Positions 13,272 to 58,789 of a stretch of 64,000 nucleotides of DNA are shown here, piece after piece. Position numbers and translations under genes: made by a program. Each line of letters begins with the position of its first letter. The stretch's first letter is position 1. The notes beneath the pieces were generated by a model. The model made no database searches, was not told the origin of the DNA, and was given only the letters and a program-made list of their open reading frames with translations. The stretch is taken from NCBI GenBank assembly GCA_049591595.1, contig JBAWFE010000027.1, forward strand, positions 149,812 through 213,811. Direction: 5' to 3'. Source of the DNA: Candidatus Dormiibacterota bacterium. GTDB lineage: Bacteria; Chloroflexota; Dormibacteria; Aeolococcales; Bog-877.

Positions 13272-13273
13272 GG

Positions 13274-39679: not shown

Positions 39680-40741
39680 GTGGCCGCTCGACCCCAGTCG
39701 CCCGTCGCGTCTCCTCTCGGGGAGCTCCAGCTGGTCCTGGAGGAGGAGGTGCTCCGGGTGGAGAACGCCCTCCTCACCATCGACGAGGAGGTCATGCAGC
39801 TGCTCTCCGCCCTGGACCAGGTCGGGGACCGGCTGGAGGACTCCGACATCGTGCGCCGCCATGTCCTGCGTGACCACGCGCGCTTCACTTCCGCCGAGGT
39901 GGAGGCCGCCATCGGTCGCTGCTTCGCTTTGAGATCAGAGATGACCTTGGCTAGGCTGCGCCTCGCCCACTGTCGGAGCTGGGCGAAGGAGTTGCGCTAC
40001 TGGCACTCCCTGATGAAGGCAGCCGCCGAACAGTTGGAGGACCACCGACCTCCCGACGGCACCCTGGAGGAGGGTCTGGCGCGCTATCGAAGCGCGTCGC
40101 GGCAGGTCTTCCAGACCATCGACGAGGAGCGGATGCGGATTGCCCGGGATATGCACGACGGACCCGCTCAGTCGATGTCCAATCTGGTGCTTCGGGCCGA
40201 GATTCTCGAGCGCATGGTCGATCGGGAGCCAGAGCGGGCCAAAGCGGAGGTTCAGAGCTTCAAGGATGCGATGAAGGGGGTGTTGGACGAGACCAGACAG
40301 CTGATCTTCGACCTGCGCCCTATGACCCTTGACGACCTTGGGGTGATTCCGACTCTGCGACGGCTGGTCAACGAGTTCCGGGACGCGGAGGGGATCGAGG
40401 GCCGGCTCTCGGTGATCGGAACTGAACGGCGACTCCCGGCGGCCACCGAGGGAGCTCTCTTCCGGATCGTCAAGGAAGCTCTGGTCAACGTCCGCAAGCA
40501 CGCTCGAGCGCACAGCCTGGATGTACTAATTAATTTGCAGCCGCAGCGGGTGAGCGCGGTCATCAAGGACGATGGGGATGGCTTCGACCTAGCGGCGGTG
40601 GAGGTGCGGCTTGCTCGCGAACCACACTTCGGACTGATCTCGATGCGGGAGCGCGCCGACCTCGAGCAAGGTCAACTGGAAATCCTCTCCCAGGTCGGCC
40701 GAGGCACCGAAGTGCGAGTAACGCTGCCGATCGAACCGTGA
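39680..40741 (+). CDS. cytoplasmic sensor histidine kinase (HisKA_3 + HATPase_c, DegS/NarX-type)
   Basis: H-box RMRIARDMHDGPAQSMSNL, an N-terminal coiled coil, no TM segment, and an ATPase G-box region DDGDGF. Start uncertain (TTG 39674 or GTG 39680). Confidence 0.7.
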   Translation: MAARPQSPVASPLGELQLVLEEEVLRVENALLTIDEEVMQLLSALDQVGDRLEDSDIVRRHVLRDHARFTSAEVEAAIGRCFALRSEMTLARLRLAHCRSWAKELRYWHSLMKAAAEQLEDHRPPDGTLEEGLARYRSASRQVFQTIDEERMRIARDMHDGPAQSMSNLVLRAEILERMVDREPERAKAEVQSFKDAMKGVLDETRQLIFDLRPMTLDDLGVIPTLRRLVNEFRDAEGIEGRLSVIGTERRLPAATEGALFRIVKEALVNVRKHARAHSLDVLINLQPQRVSAVIKDDGDGFDLAAVEVRLAREPHFGLISMRERADLEQGQLEILSQVGRGTEVRVTLPIEP

Positions 40742-40868: not shown

Positions 40869-41072
40869 ATGCTCGGAAGTTGGTACGTACGGCTGCGTGA
40901 CCGGATCGGTCAGGTAGTCTCGCACCGCGACTCGGACGAAGAGGGCCAGGGGATGGTTGAGTACGCGTTGATCCTGGTGCTGATCGCGATCGTTGTCATC
41001 GTTATCCTCACTGTGGTGGGACACCGCGTCAGCGACGTCTTCTCCAACATCAACACTGGTCTCGGCGGCTGA
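40869..41072 (+). CDS. flp: Flp-family type IVc prepilin
   Basis: GQGMVEYALILVLIAIVVIVILTVVG matches the Flp motif G/xxxxEY followed by a hydrophobic helix. AAGGAGG RBS 7 nt upstream. 67 aa. Confidence 0.65.
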   Translation: MLGSWYVRLRDRIGQVVSHRDSDEEGQGMVEYALILVLIAIVVIVILTVVGHRVSDVFSNINTGLGG

Positions 41073-41176
41073 TTCGTCGTAGCACTCAAGCGCGCGGCGG
41101 GGCGACCCGCCGCGCGTTTGTCCAATCCACCCAACGGCCCCGCGGCCCGCGGTAATCCCAGCGGAGGTTTTCGACG

Positions 41177-42328
41177 GTGACGACCGATTTGAAAGGACGG
41201 GTCAATCAGGTCTGGATCGCCATAGGGCTGATCCTCGCGATCCTCGCGTTCGGCGCGGCTTATTACTTCACTCGCGCCAACACCAATAACACTCGAGTGG
41301 CCCCGGCCACCGGCCAGTTGGTGGTGATCGCGAAGGTCTCGATCCCCAGCGGTACGCTGATCACCGCCGGCATGCTCGAGGAGACCCGGATCAAGGGTCT
41401 GCTACCCCTCGATTCGTACAGCTCGTGTGTGCAACTCGTGCGCACCGCCTGTGCTGCAACTGCCGGTGTGTCGGCATCGCAGTCGACGTCAACCTCCGCC
41501 TCGGACTATTACGCCGTCGTTCCGATCACCCCCAACACGGTGATCACTCAGAACAACGTCTCCGTAAACCGAGCAACCCAGTCACCATCTTTCGGCAACT
41601 TGAATCTGCCGGCTGGTGAAGTTGCCGTGGCTATTCCGATTACCGCCGCGGAGTCGGTCGCCGGCTACCTCCAGGTGGGTGACCGGATTGACATCATCGG
41701 TCTTGACTCGAGCGGAAACACCGACTTCACCTTCGAGGACCTTCCGGTGATCAGCATCGGATCTCCGTCGACGGCGACCGGGGCAGCGAGCAGCTCGTCA
41801 GGCGGCGGACTGATCGTTCTTCAGCTGACGCGCAGCGAGGCCCTTGGCGTGACCGAGATGGTCAACGACGGTTCCATATACACGATCGCGCTGCGGTCCA
41901 GTGCGGACTACGGCCACGGCTACATTCCGATCACTTCGACGCCGGCTGACGAGTACACCCAGGCCTGCGTGGCGGGGAGCTCCGTCAACCCGATCATCCA
42001 AGAGGACATGCAGACGGCTCAGCTGTCGGTCACGGCGGCGTCCAAGACCTACACCACCGCCCACAAGCAATACAACAAGGACAACACCGCGCTGCAGAGC
42101 ATGTCGGGCACCGGCTCGGCCGAGCAGGCCGCCAAGGCCCAAGTGCTCACGGATGCGGCCACCTTGGCCCAGGATCAGTTCGCCCTGATCGAGGCCCAGA
42201 ATGAGCTGGCTTCCGACCAAGCGGTCCTGTACTGCGGATCCACCAATGCCGCCAGCTCGTCATCGTCGGCGGGCAACAATTCCGGTAGCTCGCAGATGCT
42301 GCAGAACCTCTTTGGCTTCAAACCCTGA
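41177..42328 (+). CDS. cpaB: CpaB/RcpC-family Flp pilus assembly protein with C-terminal extension
   Basis: N-terminal TM (WIAIGLILAILAFGAAYYF) then a SAF-like region QLVVIAKVSIPSGTLITAGML. ~150 aa extra C-terminal coiled coil and Ser-rich tail. Confidence 0.6.
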   Translation: MTTDLKGRVNQVWIAIGLILAILAFGAAYYFTRANTNNTRVAPATGQLVVIAKVSIPSGTLITAGMLEETRIKGLLPLDSYSSCVQLVRTACAATAGVSASQSTSTSASDYYAVVPITPNTVITQNNVSVNRATQSPSFGNLNLPAGEVAVAIPITAAESVAGYLQVGDRIDIIGLDSSGNTDFTFEDLPVISIGSPSTATGAASSSSGGGLIVLQLTRSEALGVTEMVNDGSIYTIALRSSADYGHGYIPITSTPADEYTQACVAGSSVNPIIQEDMQTAQLSVTAASKTYTTAHKQYNKDNTALQSMSGTGSAEQAAKAQVLTDAATLAQDQFALIEAQNELASDQAVLYCGSTNAASSSSSAGNNSGSSQMLQNLFGFKP

Positions 42329-42367
42329 TCCTGAGGGACGAGCGCACCTCAGGGTAGCCGGTAGTTC

Positions 42368-43627
42368 GTGAGCACCACGGTGGCGGATAAGACCGTCATC
42401 CGCGTGGTGGTGGTCGACGACATCGCCAGCACCCGAGAGAACCTCAAGAAGTTGCTCTCCTTCGAGGAGGACATTGAGGTTGTCGGGACCGCTGGCGATG
42501 GCCGGACCGGCATCGACGTGACCCGGCAACTCTCGCCGCACGTGGTGCTGATGGACGTCAACATGCCGGGAATGGACGGGATCGCCGCGACTGAGACCCT
42601 GGCAGTGGAATCGCCCAACTCCCCGGTCGTGATCATGTCCGTCCAGGGGGAGCGGGACTACCTGCGCCGCGCGATGCAGTCGGGTGCTCGGGAGTTCCTC
42701 ATCAAGCCCTTCACCGGCGACGAGCTGGTGTCCAGCATCCGCCGGGTCTACGAGATGGAGGAGAAGAAGGGATCCTACCTGCCGCGCCAGCCTCCCCCCC
42801 AGGAGCAGGTAGGCGACCTGCCCCCAACCGGTTGCCAGGTGTGTCTGGTTCTCAGCGGGAAGGGGGGCTGCGGCAAGACCTTCTTGGCCATCAACCTCGC
42901 CGCCGCCCTGCGGACGGAGACGGGCGGTCGGGTCTGCCTGGTCGATCTCGATCTCCAGTTCGGCGACATCGGCGTGATGCTCAATTTGGACCACGCCAAG
43001 ACGATCACCGAACTGGTGGACAGCGAGAGTGCGTTGGACTGGGAGTTCGTCGACGACATCCTGGCCGATGGTCCAGAGGGGATTCGGGTCCTGCTGGGTC
43101 CCTTCAGCCCGGAGTTCGGGGACCTAGTCCGGGCGGAGCATGTGCGCGCCATCGTCGACGTTCTGCGACGAGAGTTTGACTATGTCGTCGTGGACAGTGG
43201 GAGCCAACTATCGGAGGCTACCCTCGAAGCAACCGAGTTGGCCGATCACGTGATCGTGGTCGGTGAGCTCACTATTCCCGCGATCAAGGACACTCGCCTG
43301 ATGCTGAAGATGCTGGAGTCGCTCAAAGTGGACCGCTCGCGGGTCATGGTCGCGGTCAACGCCCATGACGCGCATGCCGTCTATGACGCAGCCAGCATCG
43401 AGCGCAATCTGCGGTTCCCGGTCAAGCTGCAGATACCCTCGGAGCCTCGCCTGGTGGGCGGATCGATCCATCGGGCGATCCCGCTGGTCGTCTCCCACCC
43501 GGATTCCGACATCTCCTTGCTCTTCCGCAACCTGGCCCGAAGCCTGGCACCGGAAGGGGCAGCTCAGCCTGAACTCAAGGCCGAGGCCAAGGCGCCCACC
43601 GCCCGTCGCTTCGGGCTTCGGCGCTAG
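42368..43627 (+). CDS. tadZ: TadZ/CpaE: response-regulator receiver fused to a MinD/ParA-like ATPase
   Basis: REC domain with an intact phospho-acceptor region (VVVDD...VVLMDVNMPGMDG...FLIKPF), then a deviant Walker A LSGKGGCGKTFLAINLAAAL. Confidence 0.75.
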   Translation: MSTTVADKTVIRVVVVDDIASTRENLKKLLSFEEDIEVVGTAGDGRTGIDVTRQLSPHVVLMDVNMPGMDGIAATETLAVESPNSPVVIMSVQGERDYLRRAMQSGAREFLIKPFTGDELVSSIRRVYEMEEKKGSYLPRQPPPQEQVGDLPPTGCQVCLVLSGKGGCGKTFLAINLAAALRTETGGRVCLVDLDLQFGDIGVMLNLDHAKTITELVDSESALDWEFVDDILADGPEGIRVLLGPFSPEFGDLVRAEHVRAIVDVLRREFDYVVVDSGSQLSEATLEATELADHVIVVGELTIPAIKDTRLMLKMLESLKVDRSRVMVAVNAHDAHAVYDAASIERNLRFPVKLQIPSEPRLVGGSIHRAIPLVVSHPDSDISLLFRNLARSLAPEGAAQPELKAEAKAPTARRFGLRR

Positions 43628-43653
43628 GCCCAGTCGAGGAGTACTGCCAGGCC

Positions 43654-45225
43654 ATGTCACTGCTGGAGAGAGTTCGGACCAAGGACGGATCGGAGCCGGA
43701 GCCCGGCCCCGAAGTGTCCGCGCCAGTCGAGGAGAAGCCCAAGGCCAGGACGCCTGAGCCGGCAGCTGCGGCCCCCCCCGCTCCACCTCCCGCTGCTCCT
43801 TCTCGCCTAGCGGCCGCCCTGGCTGCCGCCAAGCCTCCGGCCGTAGCCGCCCCGGCCAAGTCGCCAGGATGGCGGGAGCGGTCCCAGACCAATCGGGAGA
43901 ACCCCTCGGCGGTGGTCGAGCCCCGGGCGGCTCATCACCCGCAGTACATGTCGATCAAGGCGCGGGTGACCCAGGCCCTACTGGAGGAGTACACCGACGT
44001 CTCCCAGGCGCCCCGCGAGCGGTTGGTCGCCAAGATCGGGGAGCTCTGCAATTCGGTCCTGGAAGAGCTGAGCATTTCGATCACCCGCACCGATCGGCAG
44101 CGGATGGTGGAGCAGCTGATCAGCGACGTGCTCGGCCTGGGCCCGCTGGAGATGATTCTCAAGGACCCGGAGATCAGCGAAATCATGATCAACGGCCCGG
44201 AGGATGTCTACGTCGAGCGCCAGGGAAGGATCTATCGCTACCCGGCCAAGTTCGACAACACGGACCACCTGATGCAGATCATCGACCGGATCGTCAGCTC
44301 GATCGGACGCCGAGTCGATGAGAGCTCGCCGATGGTGGACGCCAGACTCAAAGACGGCTCCCGGGTCAACGTGATCATCCCGCCGCTGGCGCTCCAGGGA
44401 CCGACTTTGACCATCCGGCGCTTCTCCAAGGACCCCTACACGGTGGAGGATCTGATCAACTTCGGAACTCTCACCGCTGAGATGGCGACGTTCATCCGGG
44501 CCTGCGTGCGGGCCAGGTTCAACGTGCTGATCTCAGGAGGCACCGGGTCCGGTAAGACGACCACTCTGAACGTGCTCTCCGGCTGGATCCCCGACGACGA
44601 GCGGATCATCACAATTGAGGACGCAGCCGAGTTGCAGCTGCGCCAAGACCACGTTGTGACCCTGGAGTCGCGCCCCTCCAACATCGAGGGCCGAGGACGG
44701 GTCAGCATTCGTGATCTGGTCATCAACAGCCTGCGGATGCGGCCGGATCGGATCGTCGTCGGTGAGTGTCGGGGAGGTGAGGCCCTGGATATGCTCCAGG
44801 CGATGAACACAGGCCACGACGGCTCACTTACCACTGTTCACGCCAACACTCCAGCCGACGCTTTGACCCGACTGGAGACCATGACGTTGATGGCCGGCAC
44901 CGACCTCCCGTCGCGGGCCATCCGCGAGCAGATCGCGTCGGCTATCCACCTGGTGGTTCAGCAAGCTCGCCTTCGCGATGGCACCCGGCGCATCATCGCC
45001 ATCTCCGAAGTCCGGGGCTTCGACGGGGAACGGGTCGAGATCGCGGACATCTTCCAGTACCGCCAGAAGGGCCTCGATGACCAGGGGATGGTGATCGGCC
45101 AGTTCGAAGCGGTCCAGGTTCCCAAGCGCCTCGATGATCTGGCCGCCGCTGGCGAGGGGTTGGAGGAATCGCTGTTTGCTCCTCCTTCCAAGGGCAAAAT
45201 AGCAGCAGGAGAGACCGCCGCATGA
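43654..45225 (+). CDS. tadA: CpaF/TadA secretion ATPase (VirB11/PilB superfamily) with Pro/Ala-rich N-terminal extension
   Basis: Walker [24 protein letters not shown], Asp/His boxes [17 protein letters not shown]. ~130-aa low-complexity N-terminus. Confidence 0.9.
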   Translation: MSLLERVRTKDGSEPEPGPEVSAPVEEKPKARTPEPAAAAPPAPPPAAPSRLAAALAAAKPPAVAAPAKSPGWRERSQTNRENPSAVVEPRAAHHPQYMSIKARVTQALLEEYTDVSQAPRERLVAKIGELCNSVLEELSISITRTDRQRMVEQLISDVLGLGPLEMILKDPEISEIMINGPEDVYVERQGRIYRYPAKFDNTDHLMQIIDRIVSSIGRRVDESSPMVDARLKDGSRVNVIIPPLALQGPTLTIRRFSKDPYTVEDLINFGTLTAEMATFIRACVRARFNVLISGGTGSGKTTTLNVLSGWIPDDERIITIEDAAELQLRQDHVVTLESRPSNIEGRGRVSIRDLVINSLRMRPDRIVVGECRGGEALDMLQAMNTGHDGSLTTVHANTPADALTRLETMTLMAGTDLPSRAIREQIASAIHLVVQQARLRDGTRRIIAISEVRGFDGERVEIADIFQYRQKGLDDQGMVIGQFEAVQVPKRLDDLAAAGEGLEESLFAPPSKGKIAAGETAA

Positions 45226-46253
45226 ACGCTCTAGTACTGGTCCTGGACGGGGTCGGTGCCTTGGCCTTGGGAGCCGCGGTCGCCTACCTGCTCGCCTCCT
45301 GGCGCTCGAAGTCGGGAAGTGCCGACATGGATGAGCGGGTGCGCCGCTTCGCCGAAGCCGGCGCCGGACTGGCGATCTCCGTCCCCGGTGATGAGGACTT
45401 TGGCGAATCGGCCGGCAGCCTGCAGGATCGAGCCAAGAAGCTGCTGGCGCGGCTGCGCCGCCAGGTTGAAGGAGGCAGTAAGGCGGCGGGCGTAGCCCAG
45501 CGACCTAGGTCGGTGCAAGTGGCGGAGGCGTTGGCGCGGGCTGATGTCAAGCTGCGACCGACAGAGTGGTATCTGATTCGAATCGGGGCGGTGGTGCTGC
45601 TGGCGCTGATCGGTCTCGCCCTCTACCGCAGCCTCATCTTCGCGCTCATCCTCGGAGTGATCGGTGTCTTCGTTCCTCCGTTGGTGCTGCGCTTTCGAGC
45701 CCGACGCCGCCTCGGCCGCTTCAATGACCAGCTCGGGGACACCCTGATCCTCCTCAGCAACGCGCTCAAGGCCGGTTACAGCTTTCCCCAGGCGATGGCC
45801 AGCATCGCCCGCTCGGCGCCACCGCCGACCTCGGAGGAGTTCGCCCGGGCAACCCGGGAGGTGCAGCTGGGGGTGACCACCGACGCGGCGCTCACCCACA
45901 TGGTCCATCGGATCCAGTCCGACGACCTCGACCTGGTAGTTACCGCCGTGCAGATTCAGCGCGTCGTGGGCGGCAATCTGGCCGAGATCTTCGACAACAT
46001 CGCCTTCACCATCCGGGAGCGTATCCGGATCAAGGGTGAGATCAAGACCCTGACCGCCCAGGCCCGGGCCTCGAGCTTCATCATCACCGGATTGCCGATC
46101 GGCTTGGGACTGATCCTGGAGGCGATCAACCCCAACTACATCGCCCCCCTGCTCTCCTTCAAGGGCCCTGGTCCGTACATCCTGATTGGATGCCTGATCT
46201 CCATTGCCTTCGCCTTCTACGTGATGCAGCGCATCGCCAACATCGAGGTCTGA
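45222..46253 (+). CDS. tadB: TadB (T2SS-F domain inner-membrane platform protein)
   Basis: T2SSF-like domain. 4-nt overlap with tadA. Confidence 0.8.
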   Translation: MNALVLVLDGVGALALGAAVAYLLASWRSKSGSADMDERVRRFAEAGAGLAISVPGDEDFGESAGSLQDRAKKLLARLRRQVEGGSKAAGVAQRPRSVQVAEALARADVKLRPTEWYLIRIGAVVLLALIGLALYRSLIFALILGVIGVFVPPLVLRFRARRRLGRFNDQLGDTLILLSNALKAGYSFPQAMASIARSAPPPTSEEFARATREVQLGVTTDAALTHMVHRIQSDDLDLVVTAVQIQRVVGGNLAEIFDNIAFTIRERIRIKGEIKTLTAQARASSFIITGLPIGLGLILEAINPNYIAPLLSFKGPGPYILIGCLISIAFAFYVMQRIANIEV

Positions 46254-46256
46254 GCG

Positions 46257-47174
46257 ATGTCTTATGAAGCGCTGATCGTCGGTTTGATCGCCGCCGCCGC
46301 GGTCTTCCTGGTCTTTGCCGGGCTGATCAAGCGCCAACCCCAGGTGAACCTCCTGGACGCGCGGCTCGCCGTGTATGACGAGCCAACAGGTCCCAGGACG
46401 CTCGATGAGATCGAGATGAGCCAGCCCTTCACGGAGCGCTTCCTGCGCCCCTTCTTCGACCGCATCGGTCGGCGGGTGGCGGCTCTTCAGCCGCGGGACC
46501 GCGCCCAGAAACTCCAGATTCTCATCGACCTGGCCGGCCGGCCGATGGGGATGAACGCGGGTAGCTTCGTGGCCGCCCAGATCGTGCTCGCAGTGCTGGG
46601 GGCCGTCGTGGGTCTCGGCCTGGCGGTCCTGCTTTCCTTGCCTTGGTTCCTCGGCTTGGTCTTCGGCGCCGTGCTCGGTTACATCGGCCCGCAGTACCAG
46701 CTGAAGCGGATCGTGAGCGCAAAGCAGAAGGAGATCTCGCTGGCGCTACCCAACGCCCTCGACCTCCTCTGCATCAGCGTGGAGGCCGGTCTGGGATTCG
46801 ACGCCGCCTTGGCTCGGGTGATCGAGAAATTTGATAACGCCCTCTCACGGGAATTCGCCTTCGTGCTCAACGAAATCCGGCTGGGGCGACCCCGCCACGA
46901 GGCGCTCGAGGATCTCGGCAAGCGCTCAGGGGTTCAGGAGCTGGCGTCCTTCATCCAGGCGCTGGTGCAGTCCGATCAACTTGGGGTGGGCATCGCCCGC
47001 GTTTTGCGCATCCAGTCCGACGAGATGCGCCGCCGCCGGCGTCAGAAGGCGGAGGCCAAGGCTCAGCAGGCGAGCCTGAAGATGCTCTTCCCGATGGTCG
47101 GCTGCATCTTCCCGGTGCTGTTCGTGATCCTGCTGGGTCCGCCGGCTGTGGCGTTGATCTTCCATGTCACCTAA
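46257..47174 (+). CDS. tadC: TadC (T2SS-F domain inner-membrane platform protein)
   Basis: Second T2SSF-like protein, 3 nt after tadB. Confidence 0.75.
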   Translation: MSYEALIVGLIAAAAVFLVFAGLIKRQPQVNLLDARLAVYDEPTGPRTLDEIEMSQPFTERFLRPFFDRIGRRVAALQPRDRAQKLQILIDLAGRPMGMNAGSFVAAQIVLAVLGAVVGLGLAVLLSLPWFLGLVFGAVLGYIGPQYQLKRIVSAKQKEISLALPNALDLLCISVEAGLGFDAALARVIEKFDNALSREFAFVLNEIRLGRPRHEALEDLGKRSGVQELASFIQALVQSDQLGVGIARVLRIQSDEMRRRRRQKAEAKAQQASLKMLFPMVGCIFPVLFVILLGPPAVALIFHVT

Positions 47175-47637
47175 TTCGGCTCCGGCGAACACCGCCGGTC
47201 CCCGTTCGCGAACGGTGGTGGTGCGCGCCGCCGACGGCGCGGTGGTGGCCCGTCGGGTGACCGTGGCGGATCGCTTCGGACCCCGCCTGATGGGGCTGAT
47301 GGGTCGCGCCCAGCTCGACCCTGACGAGGGACTGTGGCTGGTGCCGTGCAACAGTGTTCACATGTTCTTCATGCGGACCCCGTTGGACATTGCCTATCTC
47401 GACCGCCAGCTGCGGGTGGTGCGCTGCGTGCCGGAGATGCGGGAATGGCAGGTCAAGCTGCTGCCGGTGCGGCATGCGCATAGCGCCCTCGAGCTGGCCC
47501 CGGGCACCCTGCGTCGCACGGGAGTCAGCGAGGGCGATGAGCTAAAGATAGGGTCGGAGCCCGCGAGTGTCGCGGAGTTAGCCCCGGAGATGTCCGGCAC
47601 CGGTTCAGCGGTGTTCAGTTCCAGTGTCAGGGAGTAG
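47164..47637 (+). CDS. DUF192 (COG1430) domain protein
   Basis: GLMGRAQLDPDEGLWLVPCNSVHMFFMRTPLDIAYLDRQLRVV ... ALELAPG follows the DUF192 consensus. It overlaps tadC by 11 nt. Confidence 0.55.
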   Translation: MSPNSAPANTAGPRSRTVVVRAADGAVVARRVTVADRFGPRLMGLMGRAQLDPDEGLWLVPCNSVHMFFMRTPLDIAYLDRQLRVVRCVPEMREWQVKLLPVRHAHSALELAPGTLRRTGVSEGDELKIGSEPASVAELAPEMSGTGSAVFSSSVRE

Positions 47638-47640
47638 TCA

Positions 47641-48834
47641 ATGAGTCCGGTCCTTACCGAAGAAGAGAGGCTGCAAGGCATGGAGGGATACCTCCAGGCC
47701 CTCGGTCCGCTGCGGGTTCTAGTGGAAGATGACAGTCTCACCGAGATCATGGTCGTCGGTCCGGACATGGTGTACGTGGAGGCCCAGGGCAAGATCGTGC
47801 TCACCGACGTCCGCTTCCGCGACAACGAGCATCTCCTCAAGGTGATCGACCTGATCGTCGCCGCGGTCGGACGCCGCGTTGACGTTCGTCAGCCACTCTG
47901 TGACGCACGTTTGCTGGACGGCTCCCGCGTCAACGCGGTGGTGCCCCCGGTGTCTATCGACGGACCAATTCTGACCATCCGTAAGTTCGCCAAAGAGCGC
48001 CTGCGGATCACCGACCTGATCCATTTCGGCACCATCGATGAGGCGGGTGCATCGTTCATGCAGGCCTGCGTGCTGGCCCGCGCGAACATCCTCATCTCGG
48101 GAGGCACCGGCGCCGGCAAGACGACGCTGCTGAACATCTGCTCAGGCTTCATTCCTCCCGACGAGCGCATCGTCACCATCGAGGACGCCGCAGAGCTGCA
48201 GATGCACCAGGAGCATGTCTGTCGGCTGGAGTCGCGTCCCCCGGACGTGCGTGGCGAGGGCCGGATCAACATCCGCGACCTGGTCATCAACGCCCTCCGG
48301 ATGCGACCTGATCGAATTGTGGTCGGTGAGGTTCGAGGCGGTGAGGCTCTGGACATGCTTCAGGCCATGAACACGGGCCATGACGGCTCCATGACCACCG
48401 TCCACGCCAACACCCCTCGAGACAGTCTCTCCCGTCTGGAGACCCAGGTATTGATGGGTGGCGTGGAGCTGCCCTCGAAGGCGATTCGTCAGCAGATCTC
48501 CAGCGCCATCGACATCATCGTGCAGCTCAACCGCCTCCGCGACGGCAGCCGTCGGATCACCGCGATCAGCGAGGTGGTCGGGATGGAGGGCGACACGATC
48601 ACGATGCAGGACATCTTCGTGATGAAGGCCGAGGGCATGGATCAGCAGGGCAACCTGAAGAATGAGTTCGAGCTGACCGGGGTCAGGCCGCAGATCCTCG
48701 ACCGTCTCTTCGACATGGGCTTGGCGGTTCCACCCGAGATCTCAAGGCTCTTCCCGGACCGGCGCACCGACCAGGTGGCGGCGATCAAGTTGCCGACACC
48801 ACCCCCCGGTCCATTGCAGAGGCGTCTTGGCTGA
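47641..48834 (+). CDS. second CpaF/TadA-like secretion ATPase paralog (N-terminally shorter, 397 aa)
   Basis: [40 protein letters not shown]. ~80% nt identity to the tadA core over ~100 nt (44758-44850 vs 48319-48420). Confidence 0.85.
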
Positions 48835-49666
48835 TGTCCGGACTCGGCGGGGGGCGGTAACCCGCCGACTCGCAAAGGGGTTCGGTGGCGTCTTTTTGGG
48901 GGCAATCCTGACTTTGACGCTGCCCGGCCTCCTGGCGGCCCCCGTGTTTGCCCAAACACCAGGCAGTGGAACTGGGTACAACGAAGAGCTAGTCAGTCTC
49001 ACCAACAACGACCGCACCAGTAACGGATTGGCGGCCCTGGCGGAGAACGGCGCCCTCGACGACATCGGAGAGAGTGGGGATTACGGTGGCTGCTCTCGAC
49101 CTATCTACGGACGGGCGGACGACATGATCACCAATGACTACTTCTCCCACGTCATTCCGGGATGCAGCGCCGACGGGGGCTACGTCTGGCCGATCATGTC
49201 GGCGTACGGAGTCGATTTCAGTTCAGCAGGCGAGAATGTCGGCTGGAACAGCGGCTACGCGGACCCGGCGGCCGGGGTGAACACCCAGTTCATGGACTCC
49301 GCTCCCCACCGGGCAAACATCCTGGGGGCATTTGACGAGCTTGGAGTCGGGTCCTGGTACACCTCAAGCTCCTGGAACTACCCGGGCAGCGGTGGCGGAC
49401 CCTGGACCGGCGTCTACATGTTCGCCGAGGAGTTCGCCCAGGTCGGCGGGTACACTCCGCCTCCGTCGTCGGGTGGCGGAGGTGGTGGCGGTGGTGGCGG
49501 TACGGCACCTAGCCCACCGGCAACGCCGGCTCCCACTCCGGTCCCGACCCCGACTCCCACCCCGAAGCCCCCTCCGCCCGGAGTGGGGTCAAAGTCGCCG
49601 AAGCTGGCCCAGGGATTGCTATCCAGCACAATTGACCAGGTGATCAGCAGCTACCTAGATGAGTGA
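48827..49666 (+). CDS. secreted CAP/SCP/PR-1-domain protein with Gly10 + Pro/Thr-rich linker
   Basis: Signal peptide (...LLAAPVFAQT), a CAP core (NNDRTSNGLAAL ... GENVGWN ... HRANIL) and GGGGGGGGGGTAPSPPATPAPTPVPTPTPTPKPPPPG. Confidence 0.6.
   Translation: MADVRTRRGAVTRRLAKGFGGVFLGAILTLTLPGLLAAPVFAQTPGSGTGYNEELVSLTNNDRTSNGLAALAENGALDDIGESGDYGGCSRPIYGRADDMITNDYFSHVIPGCSADGGYVWPIMSAYGVDFSSAGENVGWNSGYADPAAGVNTQFMDSAPHRANILGAFDELGVGSWYTSSSWNYPGSGGGPWTGVYMFAEEFAQVGGYTPPPSSGGGGGGGGGGTAPSPPATPAPTPVPTPTPTPKPPPPGVGSKSPKLAQGLLSSTIDQVISSYLDE
49468..49582 (+). repeat. low-complexity Gly10 / (Pro-Thr)n coding repeat
   Basis: ggtggcggaggtggtggcggtggtggcggt... followed by ccgac/ccgactcc-type PT repeats. 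Confidence 0.7.
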
Positions 49667-50474
49667 GGCGCCCGCCCCAGTCGAAAAGGGCGAGGTGGCA
49701 GGCCAGGCAGTGTTGGAAGCGACGGGACTTCACAAGAGCTTCTCCATCAGCAAGACCCCTCACGAAGTGGTTCGCCAGGTCTCACTGACGGTCAACCCCG
49801 GGGAGTTCTTCGCGGTGATGGGCCCCAGTGGATGCGGCAAGTCGACGCTGCTGAACATGCTCGGTGGGCTGGAAGCTCCCGACCAGGGCAAGGTGGTGGT
49901 AAGGGGGACCGATCTCTACTCCTTGAGCGAAGGCGAAAGGGCGGCGTTCCGACGTCGGCAGATCGGGTTCATCTTCCAGTTCTTCAACCTGCTCCCCAGC
50001 CTGACGGCCGCCGAGAACGTGATGCTGCCCTACCGCTTGGAGCGCAATCGCGCGTGGCCGCTGCGAGGGCTGGGACGAGACCGAGACGCGCGGGCCCGGG
50101 CCCACGATCTGATGGCGATGCTGGGGCTGAAGGGGCTGCAGGGACACCGACCTGACGAGATTTCTGGTGGTGAGCAGCAGCGGGTCGCGGTCGCCCGGGC
50201 CCTAGTCTCCGACCCGGCCATCCTGCTGGCGGACGAGCCCACCGGTACCTTGGACTACCACGCCGGTCGAGGCGTGCTGGAGCTGTTGCTGCGGCTGAGT
50301 CGGCAGGAGGGTCGGACCATCGTCCTGGTGACCCACGACGTCCGGACCGCCGCCTACGCCGAACGGGTGGCGATCATGCTCGACGGGGAGTTCAAGGAGG
50401 TGGTGCGGTTGGGTCACCGGACAGTTCACGACACCGCCCCACTGCTGGAAAGGCTCGGGACTCATGGTCTCTGA
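49659..50474 (+). CDS. ABC transporter ATP-binding protein (MacB/LolD/FtsE-like)
   Basis: [37 protein letters not shown]. 8-nt overlap with the CAP gene (ATGAGTGA). Confidence 0.9.
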   Translation: MSEAPAPVEKGEVAGQAVLEATGLHKSFSISKTPHEVVRQVSLTVNPGEFFAVMGPSGCGKSTLLNMLGGLEAPDQGKVVVRGTDLYSLSEGERAAFRRRQIGFIFQFFNLLPSLTAAENVMLPYRLERNRAWPLRGLGRDRDARARAHDLMAMLGLKGLQGHRPDEISGGEQQRVAVARALVSDPAILLADEPTGTLDYHAGRGVLELLLRLSRQEGRTIVLVTHDVRTAAYAERVAIMLDGEFKEVVRLGHRTVHDTAPLLERLGTHGL

Positions 50475-50489
50475 GGTCGGCTCCGGGAG

Positions 50490-53000
50490 TTGATCCCCCT
50501 CCTTTGGCGCCGAGCGGCGCTGGCCCGCCTGGCCCTCGGAGTGGCCGCGCTGGCGCTGGGTGGCGGGGCGGTCCTGGGTACCCAGCTGACCTCGGGTGCG
50601 CTCCATCAGCAGGCGACCGCGGCGGTACAGCAACGAGCGGGTGCCGCCGAGTACGACATTCAACCGTTTGCCCGTCAGGGCTTCACGACTGCCCAGCTCA
50701 AGGCCATAGCCAAGCTCAAGGTGGTCACCTCGGCATCCCCATTGGAGGAGAAGGCCGATCTGGCCCGCCTCCCTTCCAAGGCCTTCCGGGAGGTGGTCCT
50801 GGTGGCGACCAGCGCCAGGGGGGTGGCGCTGCGCCCGCTGCCGGTAATTAAAGGGAGCAGCCCTCGGTCGGAGGATGAGGTGGCGGTGAGCCAGAACCTG
50901 GCCCCGGGCATCTCGCTCACCTCGGGTGCGGCTACCCCGGGCAAGGTCAGGATCGGCCAGCAGCTGCAGCTGGTCGAGTCCAAGGGGGTCAAGAAGTTCA
51001 CGGTGGTGGGAGTTGTCGCCAACTCCAGCTTGGGAGCGCCGTTCACCGCTGACGCCGTCTACATCAACCAGGCGACAGCCCAGAAGCTCTTCTCCTCGGG
51101 GCTGCAGGTGACCGAGGTCGCGGTCAGGCTCCGGCCCGGTGCGACCGTGCCCCAGCTGCTCAGCGAGCTCTCCCACTCTGTCCACACCCAGTACACCGTC
51201 AGCAACCCGAGATCAGTTCCGGAGGGAGATCCGGTGGGGGAGTTGCAGCCCATCCTTGACGGCATCACCGCGTTGAGCCTGGTGCTCGCCTTCGCGGTGA
51301 TCGCGGCGACCTTCAGCTCCCTGGTCCTCGACCGCCGCCGCGAGATTGGTTTACTCCGGCTAGCCGGAGCCAGCCGAGGTCTGATCTTCCGCAGCTTCTT
51401 GCGCGAAGCGATCGCCGCCTCGGCGCTGGGCGCCGCGATCGGGGTCGGGGTCGGGTACCTGCTGGCCCTGGTGCTGATCGCGGTCTCCACCCCCTCCGGG
51501 GTGAGCCCAGCGCCTCGAATCCAGGCCGACGTTGGTTGGACGGTAGTCGCCTTCCTGCTGGTACTGCTTCTGGGGGTGCTCGCGGCCGCGTTCCCGGCGG
51601 TCCAGGCAGCCCGGATACCGCCCCTGGTTGCGGTGCGACCGCCCGGCCTTCGACTCGGGCGGGGGTGGGCCTGGCAGCTTCCGCTGTTTGTGCTGGGAGT
51701 GATCGGGGCCGATTTCTTCTTCGAGAATGGAGGAGCGTTGGGAGTGGGCCTGGGCGCCGGTTTCGCCTACCTGGCTGTCTGCGCCGCCCTGGGGTGGATC
51801 GGTCCCCGCCTGGTGCGCATCCTGAGTATGGTCTTGGGCCCGCTGATCGGCACGCCGGTGGCAGCCATCTCCGCCCGCGGACGTACCCGTCCTGCCCGCA
51901 CCTCGCTCGCCCTGGCGGCCCTCTTCGTCAGCGTGGCGACGGCCATCGGCCTGGTGGGGCTCTCCAGTGCCGCCCTCACCGCGGGTCAGGTCTGGGTGAA
52001 CCACCTCTTCGTAGGCCAGTACCTCCTGGTCAGCCCGGTCGTCCAGACCACCAAGGTGGAGCAGCAGGTGCTGACCGCGATCTCGGCCAAAACCAGCAAC
52101 ACCACCGTGGTTGCTTCCGCCCCAGTCCGATTCGTGGCGGGGCGGGTGGGCCACGAGGCGATCTCCCTGGCGGCCACCTCGGCCACGGCCTACGGAATCA
52201 GCGGGGCGCTTCAGTTCATTCATGGCGACCGGGACTCGGCTCTGGCCCATCTCTCCGCCGGTCAGGGGGTGGTGCTGCCTCTTGAGCTCTCCGAGTCTCT
52301 GCACGCCTCGGTCGGCTCCAAAATCAAGGTGATCTCCGCCAGCGGATCCGGGTCGTTCCGGGTGGTCGGCGTGGTCGCCCACAGCCTCCCTGGCCCCTCC
52401 GGAGAGGAGTCGGCGGTGATCGACAGCGCCGCTGCCAAGAAGGACTTTGGCGCCGCCGCCGAGGGCTTCAACCTCATCCAGCTGGAGCTGCGGGGCGGGG
52501 CAGACCTTCAGCATCAGGTGGCCTTGGCCGCCTTCCGATACGGGTTGGAGGAGGAGACCGTCTCTACCGTGCGCCGGGGGGTGGACCTTGGCGTGCAGCA
52601 CGATATAGCGGCTCTCTCGGCGCTGGCCCTGGTGGGAGTGGTGATCGGCATCTTGGCCGCCATCAACACGGTCGTCCTCGGAGCCCGCGAGGGAACTCGA
52701 GACATGGCGCTGCTGCGGGTGGTGGGACTCAGCCGGGCGGAGACCCGTCGGGCGGTGATAGGGGAGGCGCTGGCCACCGCCATCGCCGGCTGTGCGGTCG
52801 GGATCGCTGTCGGGATCGGCCTGATCTCGCCAGAAGTTCACGTGGCGAACTCGGCCGCTCTGCCTCTCAGCTTCGGAGTCCCAGTCCTGGTGATCCTCGC
52901 GGTGGTTCTGGCGGTGGTCGTGGCCATCGTGCTGGCCGCCGTGATTCCGGCTCGCCAGCTCAGCAATCTCGATCCGGTGGCGGCGCTGAGCGTGGAGTGA
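50490..53000 (+). CDS. ABC transporter permease with two FtsX domains (MacB-type, 836 aa)
   Basis: Two repeats of one N-terminal TM, a ~200-aa extracytoplasmic domain, and 3 TM of FtsX type (LRLAGASRGLIFRSF... / LRVVGLSRAETRRAV...). Confidence 0.85.
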   Translation: MIPLLWRRAALARLALGVAALALGGGAVLGTQLTSGALHQQATAAVQQRAGAAEYDIQPFARQGFTTAQLKAIAKLKVVTSASPLEEKADLARLPSKAFREVVLVATSARGVALRPLPVIKGSSPRSEDEVAVSQNLAPGISLTSGAATPGKVRIGQQLQLVESKGVKKFTVVGVVANSSLGAPFTADAVYINQATAQKLFSSGLQVTEVAVRLRPGATVPQLLSELSHSVHTQYTVSNPRSVPEGDPVGELQPILDGITALSLVLAFAVIAATFSSLVLDRRREIGLLRLAGASRGLIFRSFLREAIAASALGAAIGVGVGYLLALVLIAVSTPSGVSPAPRIQADVGWTVVAFLLVLLLGVLAAAFPAVQAARIPPLVAVRPPGLRLGRGWAWQLPLFVLGVIGADFFFENGGALGVGLGAGFAYLAVCAALGWIGPRLVRILSMVLGPLIGTPVAAISARGRTRPARTSLALAALFVSVATAIGLVGLSSAALTAGQVWVNHLFVGQYLLVSPVVQTTKVEQQVLTAISAKTSNTTVVASAPVRFVAGRVGHEAISLAATSATAYGISGALQFIHGDRDSALAHLSAGQGVVLPLELSESLHASVGSKIKVISASGSGSFRVVGVVAHSLPGPSGEESAVIDSAAAKKDFGAAAEGFNLIQLELRGGADLQHQVALAAFRYGLEEETVSTVRRGVDLGVQHDIAALSALALVGVVIGILAAINTVVLGAREGTRDMALLRVVGLSRAETRRAVIGEALATAIAGCAVGIAVGIGLISPEVHVANSAALPLSFGVPVLVILAVVLAVVVAIVLAAVIPARQLSNLDPVAALSVE

Positions 53001-53007
53001 CTCGGCG

Positions 53008-54474
53008 GTGACCGCAGTGCCCGAGGAGGGGAGCCTAGAGGATCTGCTGGGCAACCGCGGCCGCCGGCTGCGGCGCCTGGTGTTGCTGGTCTCCCTGGGC
53101 TGTGTATTGGGGCTGGCCGCTTTCGCCATGCCTCACGAGTTTCCCCCCCGTCCGGGCGGACTGGCCTCCGACTACCGCGTCTTCTACGCAGCCGGTCAGC
53201 TGATCGCCAAAGGTGTGAACCCCTACCACCTCGGCACTCTTCAGGCGGCTGAGCAGGCGGCATACCGGTACCCGGGCCTGAACGCGGTCCTGGACAGCTT
53301 CGTGGATCCTCCGATCGCAGCCTGGGTGCTGGTGCCGCTGTCCCACCTTCCGTTCTGGGTCAGCTACGCCCTGCTCAGCGCCTTGGGCTTGATCTTGATG
53401 GTGCTCACAGCCACCTTGCTGGCGCGGGATCTCGGCTGGCGACACACGGGCATTCTGGCGGCGGCTGTGGTCTGCTCTTGGATCGGACTGCTGGGGTTGA
53501 TTGACGGTCAGTTCGATGCAATCCTCTTCGCGGCCCTGGCCGGCTCGATGCTCTTGGCTTGGCACGAGCGTAGCCTGGCCGCAGGATTGGTCTTGGGGCT
53601 GACCTTGCTGAAACCCACCTTGCTCTGGCCCGTCCCGATCTTCATGTTTCTGGCGCTCTGGCCGGACCGCCGGCGGGCTGTTCACTTCGCCGCCGGGTTC
53701 GTGTTGGTGGCCGCGGGTTTCCTGCTCGCCAGCGGGACCTGGCTCGGTTCATGGTGGCACCAGTTGAGCGTGTTTGGGGGGGCGATCGGGACGCAGCAAC
53801 CGGACCTCTCCGGTCTTCCCGGACTGCTCGGGGCAGCGCCGCACTCATGGCGGCTGGGCACGGGGTTGAGCTCGCCAACCACGATCGGACTGGTGGTTCT
53901 GGCCCTGGCATCGATGGTGGTCTTCGCTGTCTGGATGATGTTCTCTCCGGACTGGCGTCGGGTGAGCCCCGTGGGTCGGGTCACCTGGGCGGTTGCCCTG
54001 CCGGTCGGAATCTGGCTGCTGGCGATTCCCTACGCCCATCCCAACGACGACCTGTTGCTGCTGCCGCTGTTCATGCTGACGGTCGGTCGCGATGCACGAC
54101 GGGTCCATGGGCTAGGACTCGGCCTCTCGGCGGCAACGCTGGTGCTGCTCTTGCTCATCTGGCCGGCTAACGTCGTTCCTTGGCCAGCTGGATTGCTGGC
54201 GCTGGCGCTGCTCTCGGCCGCGGTCTGGCATTGGCGGACCGACATCCGACTGACCGGCTTCGGGGCGGGCCTATGCGTCCTGGCCTTGGCGACCCTGCCC
54301 CCGGTCTGGAGCTTTCACCTACTCGCGGTCGGCCTGACTCCGATCGCGGTACTTATCGTGGTGGTGGAGGGTGCGCGAACCTGTTGGATGGAGGTCGGCG
54401 GCGCGGGCACCGGCCCTGCTTACTTCGAAGAGCCTAGTGCGCTGGGGATTGCCCAGCCGGTAGGCGGGGCATAA
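53008..54474 (+). CDS. GT87/DUF2029-family polytopic membrane glycosyltransferase (polyprenol-P-sugar dependent type)
   Basis: DYRVFYAAGQLIAKGVNPYH matches the DUF2029/GT87 loop motif. >10 TM. Confidence 0.5.
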   Translation: MTAVPEEGSLEDLLGNRGRRLRRLVLLVSLGCVLGLAAFAMPHEFPPRPGGLASDYRVFYAAGQLIAKGVNPYHLGTLQAAEQAAYRYPGLNAVLDSFVDPPIAAWVLVPLSHLPFWVSYALLSALGLILMVLTATLLARDLGWRHTGILAAAVVCSWIGLLGLIDGQFDAILFAALAGSMLLAWHERSLAAGLVLGLTLLKPTLLWPVPIFMFLALWPDRRRAVHFAAGFVLVAAGFLLASGTWLGSWWHQLSVFGGAIGTQQPDLSGLPGLLGAAPHSWRLGTGLSSPTTIGLVVLALASMVVFAVWMMFSPDWRRVSPVGRVTWAVALPVGIWLLAIPYAHPNDDLLLLPLFMLTVGRDARRVHGLGLGLSAATLVLLLLIWPANVVPWPAGLLALALLSAAVWHWRTDIRLTGFGAGLCVLALATLPPVWSFHLLAVGLTPIAVLIVVVEGARTCWMEVGGAGTGPAYFEEPSALGIAQPVGGA

Positions 54475-58673: not shown

Positions 58674-58789
58674 CCGGCGATTATCCGAGGCGTGAGAGGG
58701 GCATCGGTGACGGCAGGGTCGCAAATCGGCAGCTTTACGCCGCGTCAGACGGCGGACCGTTGATCGGAGAACGGTAGACTCAGCTGCAA

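Follow-up and report, generated by a model that had tools for sequence, protein, structure and literature searches.

A Dormibacterota Tad/Flp pilus locus with two CpaF-type ATPases and an adjoining CAP–ABC–permease module

The stretch of DNA analyzed here (the window; 64,000 nucleotides (nt), positions 149,812 to 213,811 of contig JBAWFE010000027.1 from the Candidatus Dormiibacterota assembly GCA_049591595.1) carried a Tad/Flp pilus locus with two CpaF-type ATPase genes, followed by genes for a secreted CAP/SCP protein, an ABC ATPase, a large permease, and a GT87 glycosyltransferase. The run from flp (starting at 40869) to the GT87 gene (ending at 54474) comprised 12 genes, all on the plus strand; an earlier sequence-only reading of the same DNA had been right about every listed open reading frame (ORF), the coordinates, the strand, and eight junctions and had miscounted in giving 13 genes. 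Its domain identities were borne out by Pfam matches for Flp_Fap, RcpC, T2SSE, T2SSF, DUF192, ABC_tran, FtsX, and GT87. The 12 genes and the next gene downstream were as follows (lengths in amino acids, aa).

40869..41072, plus strand: Flp prepilin (Pfam Flp_Fap E 3.7e-10, above cut-off; processing motif G/MVEYALI)
41177..42328, plus strand: CpaB/RcpC-like protein (Pfam RcpC 1.4e-9, 38.3 bits versus a cut-off of 28.8; SAF)
42368..43627, plus strand: TadZ/CpaE, receiver plus ParA/MinD-type ATPase (Response_reg 6e-28, AAA_31, ParA, CbiA)
43654..45225, plus strand: full-length CpaF/TadA ATPase, 523 aa (T2SSE 6e-67)
45222..46253, plus strand: TadB platform protein (T2SSF 1.4e-17; transmembrane segments predicted)
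46257..47174, plus strand: TadC platform protein (T2SSF 1.1e-20)
47164..47637, plus strand: DUF192 protein (Pfam DUF192 1.5e-19)
47641..48834, plus strand: short CpaF paralogue, 397 aa (T2SSE 1.4e-58)
48827..49666, plus strand: CAP/SCP (YkwD-like) secreted protein (TIGR02909, homologues, PDB profile match, fold)
49659..50474, plus strand: ABC ATPase of LolD/MacB/FtsE type (ABC_tran 3e-37)
50490..53000, plus strand: duplicated type VII (MacB/FtsX-fold) permease, 836 aa (FtsX twice, 7e-30)
53008..54474, plus strand: GT87 membrane glycosyltransferase (PF09594 E 9.7e-15, 55 bits versus a cut-off of 25; multiple transmembrane segments)
54487..57186, plus strand: secA (SecA_DEAD 1e-113 plus other SecA domains)

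The locus was compared with about 160 related loci altogether: 80 loci came from a CAP-profile scan of one genome per species and belonged almost all to Dormibacterota, a sister lineage of Chloroflexota (PMC10608941), and 80 metagenome loci were centered on type-2 TadB (see below). Window proteins were mapped by tblastn, and the gene calls in related loci, made from tblastn plus heuristics on GC content at third codon positions (GC3), covered one phylum plus a few outliers. Exact matches to the locus came from the metagenome-assembled genome GCA_049578905.1 and its relatives, and the homologues placed the system in Candidatus Dormibacterota/Dormiibacterota and not in Actinomycetota, the group in which the sequence-only reading had proposed to compare gene neighborhoods. 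Two arrangements were recognized: (i) type 1 (29 loci; CAP identity 49-76%) had the same order as the window, HisKA_3 kinase, flp, cpaB, tadZ, tadA, tadB, tadC, DUF192, ATPase2, CAP, ABC, permease, GT87, and secA, some loci having one or two additional GT87 genes ahead of secA, and (ii) type 2 (45 loci; CAP identity 37-57%) had Tad parts scattered over ~30 kb around CAP–ABC–permease, in the order short ATPase (plus strand), long ATPase (minus), CAP–ABC–permease (plus), ABC-2 transporter (minus), a TPR-like unknown, and cpaB–tadB–tadC, followed by ~3.5 kb of unrelated genes and then by flp (1-2 copies) and three TadZ-like genes. One divergent metagenome contig (L163) kept the type-1 order with insertions. 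The type-2 loci L087 (1993-6787) and L118 (15559-19630) each held 3-4 ParA/TadZ-like genes, some with receiver domains, plus ParB_N, and also conserved unknown proteins among the Tad genes (454 aa, and 499 aa with a TPR-like end).

CAP, ABC, and permease genes followed one another in this order in 65/66 species-level loci, and a Tad-type ATPase lay within 10 kb upstream of CAP in 55/59 loci. The earlier proposal that the extra genes keep company with tad genes in relatives was thereby upheld for the second ATPase, DUF192, and the CAP–ABC–permease trio; it failed for GT87, which was linked in one clade only, together with secA. The trio was an autonomous module, and its placement in or beside a Tad locus was a Dormibacterota trait. 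It lay between lgt and a GGDEF gene in locus L049 and also occurred in locus L170, with no Tad genes nearby in either; the L170 CAP protein was 28% identical to that of the window and retained the signal peptide, the PT linker, and the C-terminal helix '…LLDTIVGDVVSSYL'. Since the trio occurred in these two loci without a second ATPase and without pilus genes, it needs neither. Distant permease homologues (26-30% identity; Actinomadura loci L169, L171, and L172) had ABC and permease genes with no CAP or Tad genes, and thus the CAP link was confined to a subclade. The short ATPase was also considered as the motor that powers the CAP–ABC module, and this was rejected because the trio occurs without any T2SSE ATPase in L049 and L170.

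GT87 displayed another distribution: the gene followed the permease gene in 21/21 type-1 loci with enough flanking sequence, in 0/34 type-2 loci, and in 0/4 others, and secA shared the 21/21 versus 0/34 split. GT87 paralogues flanked secA in many relatives, and in the window a protein encoded on the far side of secA (57291-58826, minus strand) was weakly GT87-like (E 0.004). GT87 as a core part was rejected on the 0/34 linkage; it was probably a neighbor and not part of the system, and GT87 and secA were clade-specific neighbors.

Tight spacing had served in the sequence-only reading as an operon argument. The eight tight junctions fell into (i) four overlaps, at tadA/tadB (4 nt), tadC/DUF192 (11 nt), short ATPase/CAP (8 nt), and CAP/ABC ATPase (8 nt), and (ii) four gaps, at tadB/tadC (3 nt), DUF192/short ATPase (3 nt), ABC ATPase/permease (15 nt), and permease/GT87 (7 nt), giving ranges of 4-11 nt and 3-15 nt, respectively; the 5′ junctions were looser (flp–cpaB 104 nt, cpaB–tadZ 39 nt, and tadZ–tadA 26 nt). 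The 3′ boundary of the run at GT87 was arbitrary, because secA began only 12 nt 3′ of it. Junctions of ≤16 nt made up 8/11 inside the run versus 19/31 same-strand junctions in the rest of the window by rough GC3-based gene calls, examples outside the run being the whole ATP synthase operon and DUF929/VKOR. Tight spacing was thus the norm in the window and ran on into secA, so it cannot carry the operon argument; where a high-GC genome is compact, closely packed genes say little about functional coupling.

Both ATPases matched CpaF far better than FlaI, GspE, or VirB11, and they covered different parts of it: (i) the long ATPase aligned to C. crescentus CpaF residues 11-477 (E 1.8e-122), including the disordered region, N1, N2, and the C-terminal domain, and (ii) the short ATPase aligned to residues 134-489 (E 1.7e-121), including N2, the C-terminal domain, and the C-terminal motif, without N1. 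The ORF of the short ATPase could not be extended upstream, and the N-terminal truncation read from the sequence earlier held up; its orthologues were similarly short (385-395 aa; 389 aa in the representative P0341), and loss of N1 was common to all of them. The two paralogues were 58% identical, with Walker A, Walker B, and His box intact in both, and both were present in 53/59 loci. The short ATPase was the most conserved protein of the locus (82-97% identity in type 1 and 67-76% in type 2); the long ATPase had 53-70% identity in type 2.

For the residue comparison, 66 unique short and 67 unique long orthologues were aligned to CpaF. The position of CpaF Arg387 was Arg in 66/66 short orthologues and in ~10/67 (~15%) of the long ones, in which H, A, S, Q, and K were common and the window's own long ATPase had Ala ('TPAD'). 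E443, I447, R477, and R483 were asymmetric like R387, all being at least 91% conserved in the 66 short orthologues and lost in the long ones. The long paralogue in turn retained 15 CpaF N2 residues that were replaced in the short one (144-147, 152, 155, 198, 207, 209-211, 226, 227, 231, and 249).

Published accounts assign Tad pili one bifunctional motor (Denise 2019, PMC6668835; Ellison 2019, PMC6920026), and Table 1 of Ellison 2019 gives them no retraction ATPase. A preprint proposes that CpaF docked by its N-terminal face extends pili and that CpaF flipped onto its C-terminal face, the face by which retraction motors dock, retracts them. In that work, pili of the CpaF R387A mutant fail to retract, the retraction orientation brings N1 into a clash with the platform, and orthologues for which only extension docking is predicted are degenerate at P386/R387, at the beta13-beta14 turn, and in the C-terminal motif (bioRxiv 10.64898/2026.02.24.707734). 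Read partly through this preprint, the Dormibacterota pair looks like CpaF's two orientations divided between two genes, and the alignments suggest split extension and retraction motors. The short ATPase had the PilT-like hallmarks of a missing N1 and a conserved C-terminal platform-facing surface, and it may work like PilT, though it is not a PilT by descent. A PilT orthologue was ruled out as such, with the pilT_fam model TIGR01420 matching at E 1e-13 and 51 bits versus a cut-off of 319 and with the AIRNLIRE motif missing.

Among 1.8 billion library representatives, nearly all proteins closely related to the short ATPase were long forms. Two other kinds of protein were found: (i) another short CpaF, P0417 (399 aa, 56% identity), sharing the C-terminal tail '…LSRLFP', and (ii) single polypeptides of 820-1600 aa with 2-4 tandem CpaF modules (P0335-P0340, P0342, and P0343), among which P0339 had Ala in module 1 and Arg in module 2 at the CpaF Arg387 position. 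Because of P0417 and these tandem-fused proteins, multi-motor Tad-like systems may exist elsewhere; none was found described, and literature searches on two ATPases in Tad systems and on Dormibacterota pili returned nothing describing such an arrangement.

The CAP protein displayed the order signal peptide (…APVFA/Q), CAP domain, Gly run, Pro/Thr linker, and C-terminal amphipathic helix, in agreement with the secreted protein with a Gly/Pro-Thr stalk recognized earlier. The CAP assignment was secure despite a Pfam CAP match below cut-off (E 0.016, 16.5 bits versus 21.1): NCBIfam TIGR02909 (YkwD) matched at E 8e-17, most homologues carried PF00188, a family profile built from 30 sequences matched the SCP-domain structure 4ifa (E 3e-8), and the AlphaFold2 (AF2) model (core pLDDT 70-97) had Foldseek matches to the S. 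aureus CAP protein 4h0a and to human GLIPR1 (3q2u). The GEN and HRANIL motifs of the CAP domain were invariant, with E136, N137, H161, N164, I165, and L166 fixed in 30 orthologues, and the C-terminal helix GL[LIF]xx[TS][IV][ED]x[VT][IL]xx[YF]L was found in 29/30 orthologues and also in L170. Its signal peptide was of the ordinary Sec type, and therefore the CAP protein requires no dedicated exporter. No hydrolase domain was found in it by Pfam/NCBIfam profile searches. Eukaryotic CAP proteins, e.g., yeast Pry1, bind sterols and fatty acids, and by analogy such binding would fit an 'extract and hand over' mechanism like that of YbbAP and Lol.

The ABC ATPase had its best NCBIfam matches in LolD, DarD, DevA, YbbA, MacB, and FtsE. 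The permease displayed ~10 transmembrane helices and two extracytoplasmic domains of ~220 aa each. Pfam MacB_PCD was undetected in it even at E up to 10, and its class was settled instead by (i) a family-profile search against PDB, which matched MacB (4e-38) over the transmembrane and periplasmic domains and also LolF/LolE/LolC, YtrF, and YbbP, with a far weaker match to FtsX (5e-9), and (ii) an AF2 model (pLDDT 81.6), for which the top Foldseek match was YbbAP (9ge6; TM 0.65/0.68 over 868 columns, full length), followed by MacB, LolCDE, and BceAB. The MacB-like tripartite-type exporter of the sequence-only reading thus kept its double FtsX/MacB fold and lost its tripartite character: no MacA/HlyD adaptor or outer-membrane duct was found between 37 and 58 kb or annotated in related loci, and the best match was YbbAP, not MacAB-TolC.

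A periplasmic partner whose gene lies close by is typical of type VII ABC systems, an example being the enzyme TesA, encoded next to YbbAP (PMC12646458). The CAP protein is likely the partner of this ABC/permease pair, because the CAP–ABC–permease linkage was near-obligate and was kept even outside Tad contexts. Literature searches on YkwD with FtsX and on COG1430 returned nothing describing such an arrangement.

The remaining Tad/Flp parts of the window comprised a kinase gene and an RNA hairpin near flp and three distant minor-pilin genes.

39680..40741, plus strand: HisKA_3 histidine kinase, cytoplasmic (Pfam HisKA_3 2.7e-18 plus HATPase_c)
41087..41120, plus strand: hairpin, perfect 15-bp GC stem followed by UUUGU (free energy -33.4 kcal/mol, z -4.5)
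11211..13271, minus strand: TadG-like large minor pilin/adhesin, 686 aa, Ser/Thr-rich (PF13400 'Tad' E 4e-4, 21 bits, just under the cut-off of 22.3)
13274..14008, minus strand: TadE-like minor pilin, 244 aa (Pfam TadE PF07811 E 5e-6, 27 bits, above the cut-off of 22.9)
13948..14607, minus strand: TadE/TadF-like minor pilin, 219 aa (Pfam TadE E 8e-11, 42 bits, above cut-off)

The Tad/Flp hallmarks present were thus the Flp prepilin, a CpaF/TadA ATPase, TadB and TadC with one T2SSF domain each, TadZ, CpaB/RcpC, and minor pilins; a dedicated prepilin peptidase in the window and a single bifunctional motor were the two hallmarks absent. The Flp motif read GQG/MVEYALILVLIAIVVI and was followed by a hydrophobic helix, and no other ORF in the window had a Flp motif. 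The hairpin started 14 nt past the flp stop codon and was kept in 13/13 type-1 loci with paired (compensatory) changes in the outer stem; it is likely a terminator, attenuator, or stabilizer. The CpaB/RcpC-like protein had one N-terminal transmembrane segment (12-30), SAF and RcpC domains, and a long helical C-terminal part, and it matched TIGR03177 at 5e-15, under the cut-off of that model. The TadZ receiver (REC) domain was canonical (DD, D63, S91, and K113 present), with its best REC match to NarL/GacA-type regulators. HisKA_3 kinases are the class that pairs with NarL-type receivers, and the kinase encoded next to flp is the probable partner of the TadZ receiver; its start was taken from the gene call in the metagenome-assembled genome (MAG) (353 aa), no transmembrane segment was predicted in it, and its place next to flp was kept in type-1 loci and in L163.

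The minor-pilin operon (11211-14607, minus strand) was separated from flp by 26 kb and occupied the window's lowest-GC region. The TadG-like protein had the pilin-like N-terminus 'KGQVLLIFALTAIVLFAIMG', and the N-termini of the other two products read 'RGQALIELVIIFPVIL' (244-aa TadE-like pilin) and 'RAQSTIEFALAAPIFFF' (219-aa TadE/TadF-like pilin); tblastn gave no match to these genes in any fetched locus, a result uninformative about their conservation. Neither Peptidase_A24 (TadV/CpaA) nor a secretin was found in any window ORF scanned, as the sequence-only reading had held for both; the Flp motif requires a prepilin peptidase, which is therefore presumably encoded elsewhere in the genome. 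That reading had missed the minor-pilin operon, the pair of kinase and REC-TadZ, the asymmetry of the ATPases, and the CAP C-terminal helix.

The DUF192 protein had no signal peptide and no transmembrane segment, and its gene lay directly 5′ of the short ATPase gene, likewise in type-1 relatives; in type-2 loci, a search within 10 kb of CAP or TadB turned up no DUF192. Beyond the phylum, a 97-aa DUF192 gene lay 16 nt upstream of an MshE-type (MshEN plus T2SSE) ATPase gene in the Elusimicrobiota MAG contig JBAZVI010000012.1 (L174, 9001-11115), a sign that DUF192 and pilus ATPases may be linked more generally, and no T2SSE ATPase adjoined DUF192 in Effusibacillus or in locus L176. In Bacillota, the tad operons of Erysipelotrichales and Helcococcus likewise have DUF192 at their 3′ end (PMC12786226). 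DUF192 was thus a recurrent, non-universal accessory and not new to Tad loci, a point on which the sequence-only reading was not supported.

The run was read as three co-directional units in a core-genome region and not as one machine, with a rough probability of 0.55. Unit A is a Tad/Flp (type IVc) pilus system. Its HisKA_3 kinase probably phosphorylates the TadZ receiver, upon which TadZ would position or license the machine; the flp hairpin probably sets the ratio of pilin to machinery, and CpaB, TadB, and TadC would be envelope and platform parts. Two CpaF-type hexameric motors would share the work: (i) the long one, with N1 and a degenerate C-terminal face, would dock by its N-terminal face and drive extension and (ii) the short one, in which N1 is missing but Arg387 and the C-terminal motif are retained, would attach through its C-terminal face and power retraction. 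Labor would then be divided as between PilB and PilT, an arrangement of independent origin within the CpaF family. DUF192 would be an accessory linked to the short motor, the minor pilins (two tadE genes and one tadG-like gene) would be supplied from 26 kb away, and the prepilin peptidase would come from elsewhere in the genome. Unit B would be a self-contained type VII ABC system made of the ATPase, the YbbP-like duplicated permease, and the secreted CAP partner. By analogy with YbbAP-TesA and LolCDE-LolA, ATP-driven mechanotransmission would extract a hydrophobic molecule from the envelope and pass it to the CAP domain, or alternatively the CAP protein itself would be under mechanical control; the C-terminal helix on its Pro/Thr tether would be the docking element that contacts the permease. 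Unit B was co-inherited with unit A in Dormibacterota, is probably co-expressed with it (we infer co-transcription), and can exist without it. Unit C would consist of GT87 and secA as unrelated neighbors. The roles given here to the proteins of all three units are inferred; what was observed is gene content, protein folds, synteny, and residue conservation.

The sequence-only reading had suggested a hybrid fibre/secretion machine. With all 12 genes counted in, the MacB-type pump would act together with the second ATPase to export either the CAP protein or the pilin, or to modify it, and glycosylation of these proteins would fall to GT87. The overlapping or abutting junctions from tadA through GT87, the exact order in 21/21 type-1 loci with enough flank, the Pro/Thr-rich linker of the CAP protein as a typical O-glycosylation target, and the Tad ATPases within 10 kb of CAP in 55/59 loci speak for it. 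However, GT87 was missing from the locus in 34/34 type-2 loci and travelled with secA, which further GT87 paralogues flank; spacing equally tight into secA was the norm in the window; and a tripartite pump would lack its adaptor and outer-membrane component. The GT87/secA pattern, the autonomy of the trio (L049 and L170, without a T2SSE ATPase or Tad genes), and the ordinary Sec signal on the CAP protein, which makes a dedicated exporter unnecessary, together disfavor a single machine, and we consider it improbable. At the other extreme, the synteny might be a mere legacy, the Tad genes and the trio being unrelated and the short ATPase a redundant or regulatory paralogue; for example, it might serve the TadE/TadG minor pilins as an additional extension motor or belong to mixed hexamers. 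The locus sits in a core region, with the ATP synthase operon on one side and secA/prfB/ftsEX on the other; this fits such a legacy, as do the interspersion of type-2 loci with an ABC-2 transporter, CvpA, a PEMT-like protein, and ParB, the occurrence of the trio alone elsewhere, and the tandem-fused multi-module CpaF proteins in metagenomes with their mixed residues at the Arg387 site. The trio was nevertheless still flanked by Tad genes in two rearranged layouts, down to 33-57% identity, and the short ATPase was under the strongest constraint of the locus, with N1 lost in all short orthologues and with Arg387, E443, R477, and R483 invariant in them and lost in the long paralogue. This residue pattern argues for specialization of the short ATPase and not for redundancy, and the legacy explanation was rated rather unlikely, if deserving of more weight than the single machine.

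Wall remodeling was the third candidate: CAP–ABC–permease would be an FtsEX-like controller that opens the wall for the pilus, with CAP as the regulated effector in the manner of the FtsEX-regulated PcsB, CwlO, RipC, and EnvC. The type VII ABC fold, a partner gene immediately upstream, a tethered C-terminal helix that could dock on the extracytoplasmic domains, and a module embedded in the pilus locus throughout the phylum agree with this, and a separate housekeeping ftsEX pair at ~59.7-61.8 kb implies that the ABC pair of the CAP module has another job. The permease was far nearer to YbbP, MacB, and LolCE than to FtsX (4e-38 versus 5e-9), however, the CAP protein had no hydrolase domain, and we know of no peptidoglycan-hydrolase activity of CAP domains; this candidate was judged the least probable of all. 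A more integrated scheme, in which duplication within the CpaF family gave two specialized motors and a YbbP-like ABC/CAP complex may act for the pilus on the envelope or on membrane-embedded pilin, was held as a tentative possibility, ahead of legacy synteny.

Several points weigh against the three-unit reading and the motor split within it. The trio stood beside Tad genes in two arrangements, which suggests a functional tie between units A and B that strict modularity leaves unexplained. Gene-order conservation within a single phylum may partly reflect shared ancestry. The asymmetry between the ATPases was not clean, the short one keeping 9 N2 residues lost from the long one, 7 C-terminal-domain residues being kept by the long one and lost from the short one, and Arg387 persisting in ~10/67 long paralogues; the boundaries of the beta13-beta14 turn and of the C-terminal motif were estimates from the preprint text. 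The CAP fold match was modest, with a Foldseek TM of ~0.33 across the whole chain, and to our knowledge no complex of a CAP protein with a type VII ABC system has been known. Between the hybrid machine, which is not the best reading because CAP–ABC–permease is autonomous and also found without Tad genes, and strict modularity, a link from the trio to the pilus stays plausible, because the trio was persistently embedded among Tad genes in two rearranged layouts; such a tie, at no more than even odds, would lie in envelope remodeling or in the handling of a hydrophobic substrate, conceivably membrane-embedded pilin.

The locus was set beside known systems. Compared to the Cpa/Tad system of C. 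crescentus (CpaF; PDB 9E24-9E29 and 8RJF), it shared the Flp G/xxxxEY motif, CpaB/RcpC, CpaE/TadZ with a receiver-like domain plus ParA, the CpaF motor (~1e-122 to both paralogues), two platform proteins, and TadE/TadG-type minor pilins. It differed in having two CpaF paralogues, the short one without the disordered region and N1 and the long one without Arg387; in lacking a secretin (CpaC/RcpA), TadD, and the CpaA peptidase at the locus, with the minor pilins 26 kb off; and in a fully canonical TadZ receiver with a kinase gene adjacent. The monoderm Tad loci of Bifidobacterium breve, M. tuberculosis (Rv3654c-Rv3660c), and C. diphtheriae likewise have no secretin and often an unlinked peptidase; they are compact (tadZ, tadA, tadB, tadC, and flp with tadE/tadF) and have a single ATPase. 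We know of no CAP–ABC–permease genes inside or beside those loci and of no adjacent HisKA_3 kinase gene. The tad operon of Bulleidia extructa and its Erysipelotrichales/Helcococcus relatives (PMC12786226) is also a monoderm operon with DUF192 at the 3′ end, but there DUF192 is followed by a coiled-coil protein, with no CAP–ABC module reported, whereas in the window it is followed by a second CpaF-type ATPase. PilB and PilT of type IVa pili likewise provide two paralogous hexameric ATPases per pilus, the proposed retraction motor here lacking N1 and having a conserved C-terminal face; unlike PilT, the short ATPase was 58% identical to the resident CpaF and had no AIRNLIRE motif, and the resemblance would be convergent because the duplication lay inside the CpaF clade.

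For unit B, E. coli YbbAP-TesA (PDB 9GE6-9GE8; PMC12646458) similarly has a separate ABC ATPase, a single duplicated permease of ~800-840 aa with 10 transmembrane helices and two extracytoplasmic domains, and a secreted partner encoded adjacently. The window differed from it in a CAP/SCP partner instead of an SGNH esterase, in a tethered C-terminal helix without a TesA counterpart, in a CAP gene that is co-oriented and upstream, in a sequence identity of only ~14%, and in a probably monoderm host. FtsEX (with PcsB, CwlO, RipC, and EnvC) and LolCDE-LolA are likewise type VII mechanotransducers defined by an extracytoplasmic partner, often with helical docking, but the window permease was duplicated and fused, not a homo- or heterodimer, and by profile stood nearer to MacB, LolCE, and YbbP than to FtsX. 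In E. coli, tesA is divergently oriented relative to ybbA-ybbP. A CAP partner for a type VII ABC system is, as far as we know, without precedent.

The Tad pilus is the textbook case of single-motor extension and retraction, and current work asks how an ATPase that runs in one direction can manage the two (CpaF cryo-electron microscopy in 2024-2025 and the 2026 'inversion' preprint). If the motor split is true, two orientations hard-wired in two paralogues would be a natural experiment for the inversion model, and the pair would single out the face, the residues (Arg387 and those of the C-terminal motif), and the domain (N1) on which the direction should depend. CAP–ABC–permease is a candidate for a fifth kind of type VII ABC partner system and a functional handle on CAP/YkwD proteins; a true CAP–ABC complex would be the first defined molecular context for these proteins in bacteria. 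With this locus, surface adhesion enters the biology of a soil phylum that is abundant and uncultured and has drawn attention chiefly for its trace-gas metabolism.

The flanks of the locus held core genes: (i) MurA-like, MreB, ABC importer, and ATP synthase operon (~19-33 kb) genes on the 5′ side and (ii) secA, prfB, ftsE/ftsX, and PDH E1 on the 3′ side; other flank genes encoded WecG/TagA, a GT2, DUF929, and VKOR. A promoter and terminator scan of 39-58 kb gave nothing beyond shuffled expectation and missed the flp hairpin, and no Rfam family matched 37-58 kb at E up to 1, hence no cyclic di-GMP or other riboswitch upstream of flp. In prfB (58790-59905), an apparent classical +1 programmed frameshift site, CAT CTT TGA C, lay near the start at 58853-58859, and the MAG annotation had a 371-aa PCRF/RF-1 product across two frames. 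The ORF at 59729-60925 overlapped the end of prfB and had ABC_tran confined to residues 185-331, and the true ftsE start is probably much later than its first in-frame start codon; the housekeeping ftsX, with FtsX_ECD, followed at 60922-61818. Polytopic membrane proteins encoded at 37974-39566 and 57291-58826 (both minus strand) flanked the region, neither above a Pfam cut-off; the former was conserved beside the kinase gene and carried a 'DPDFWWHLRNG' loop motif, which may point to a GT-C fold.

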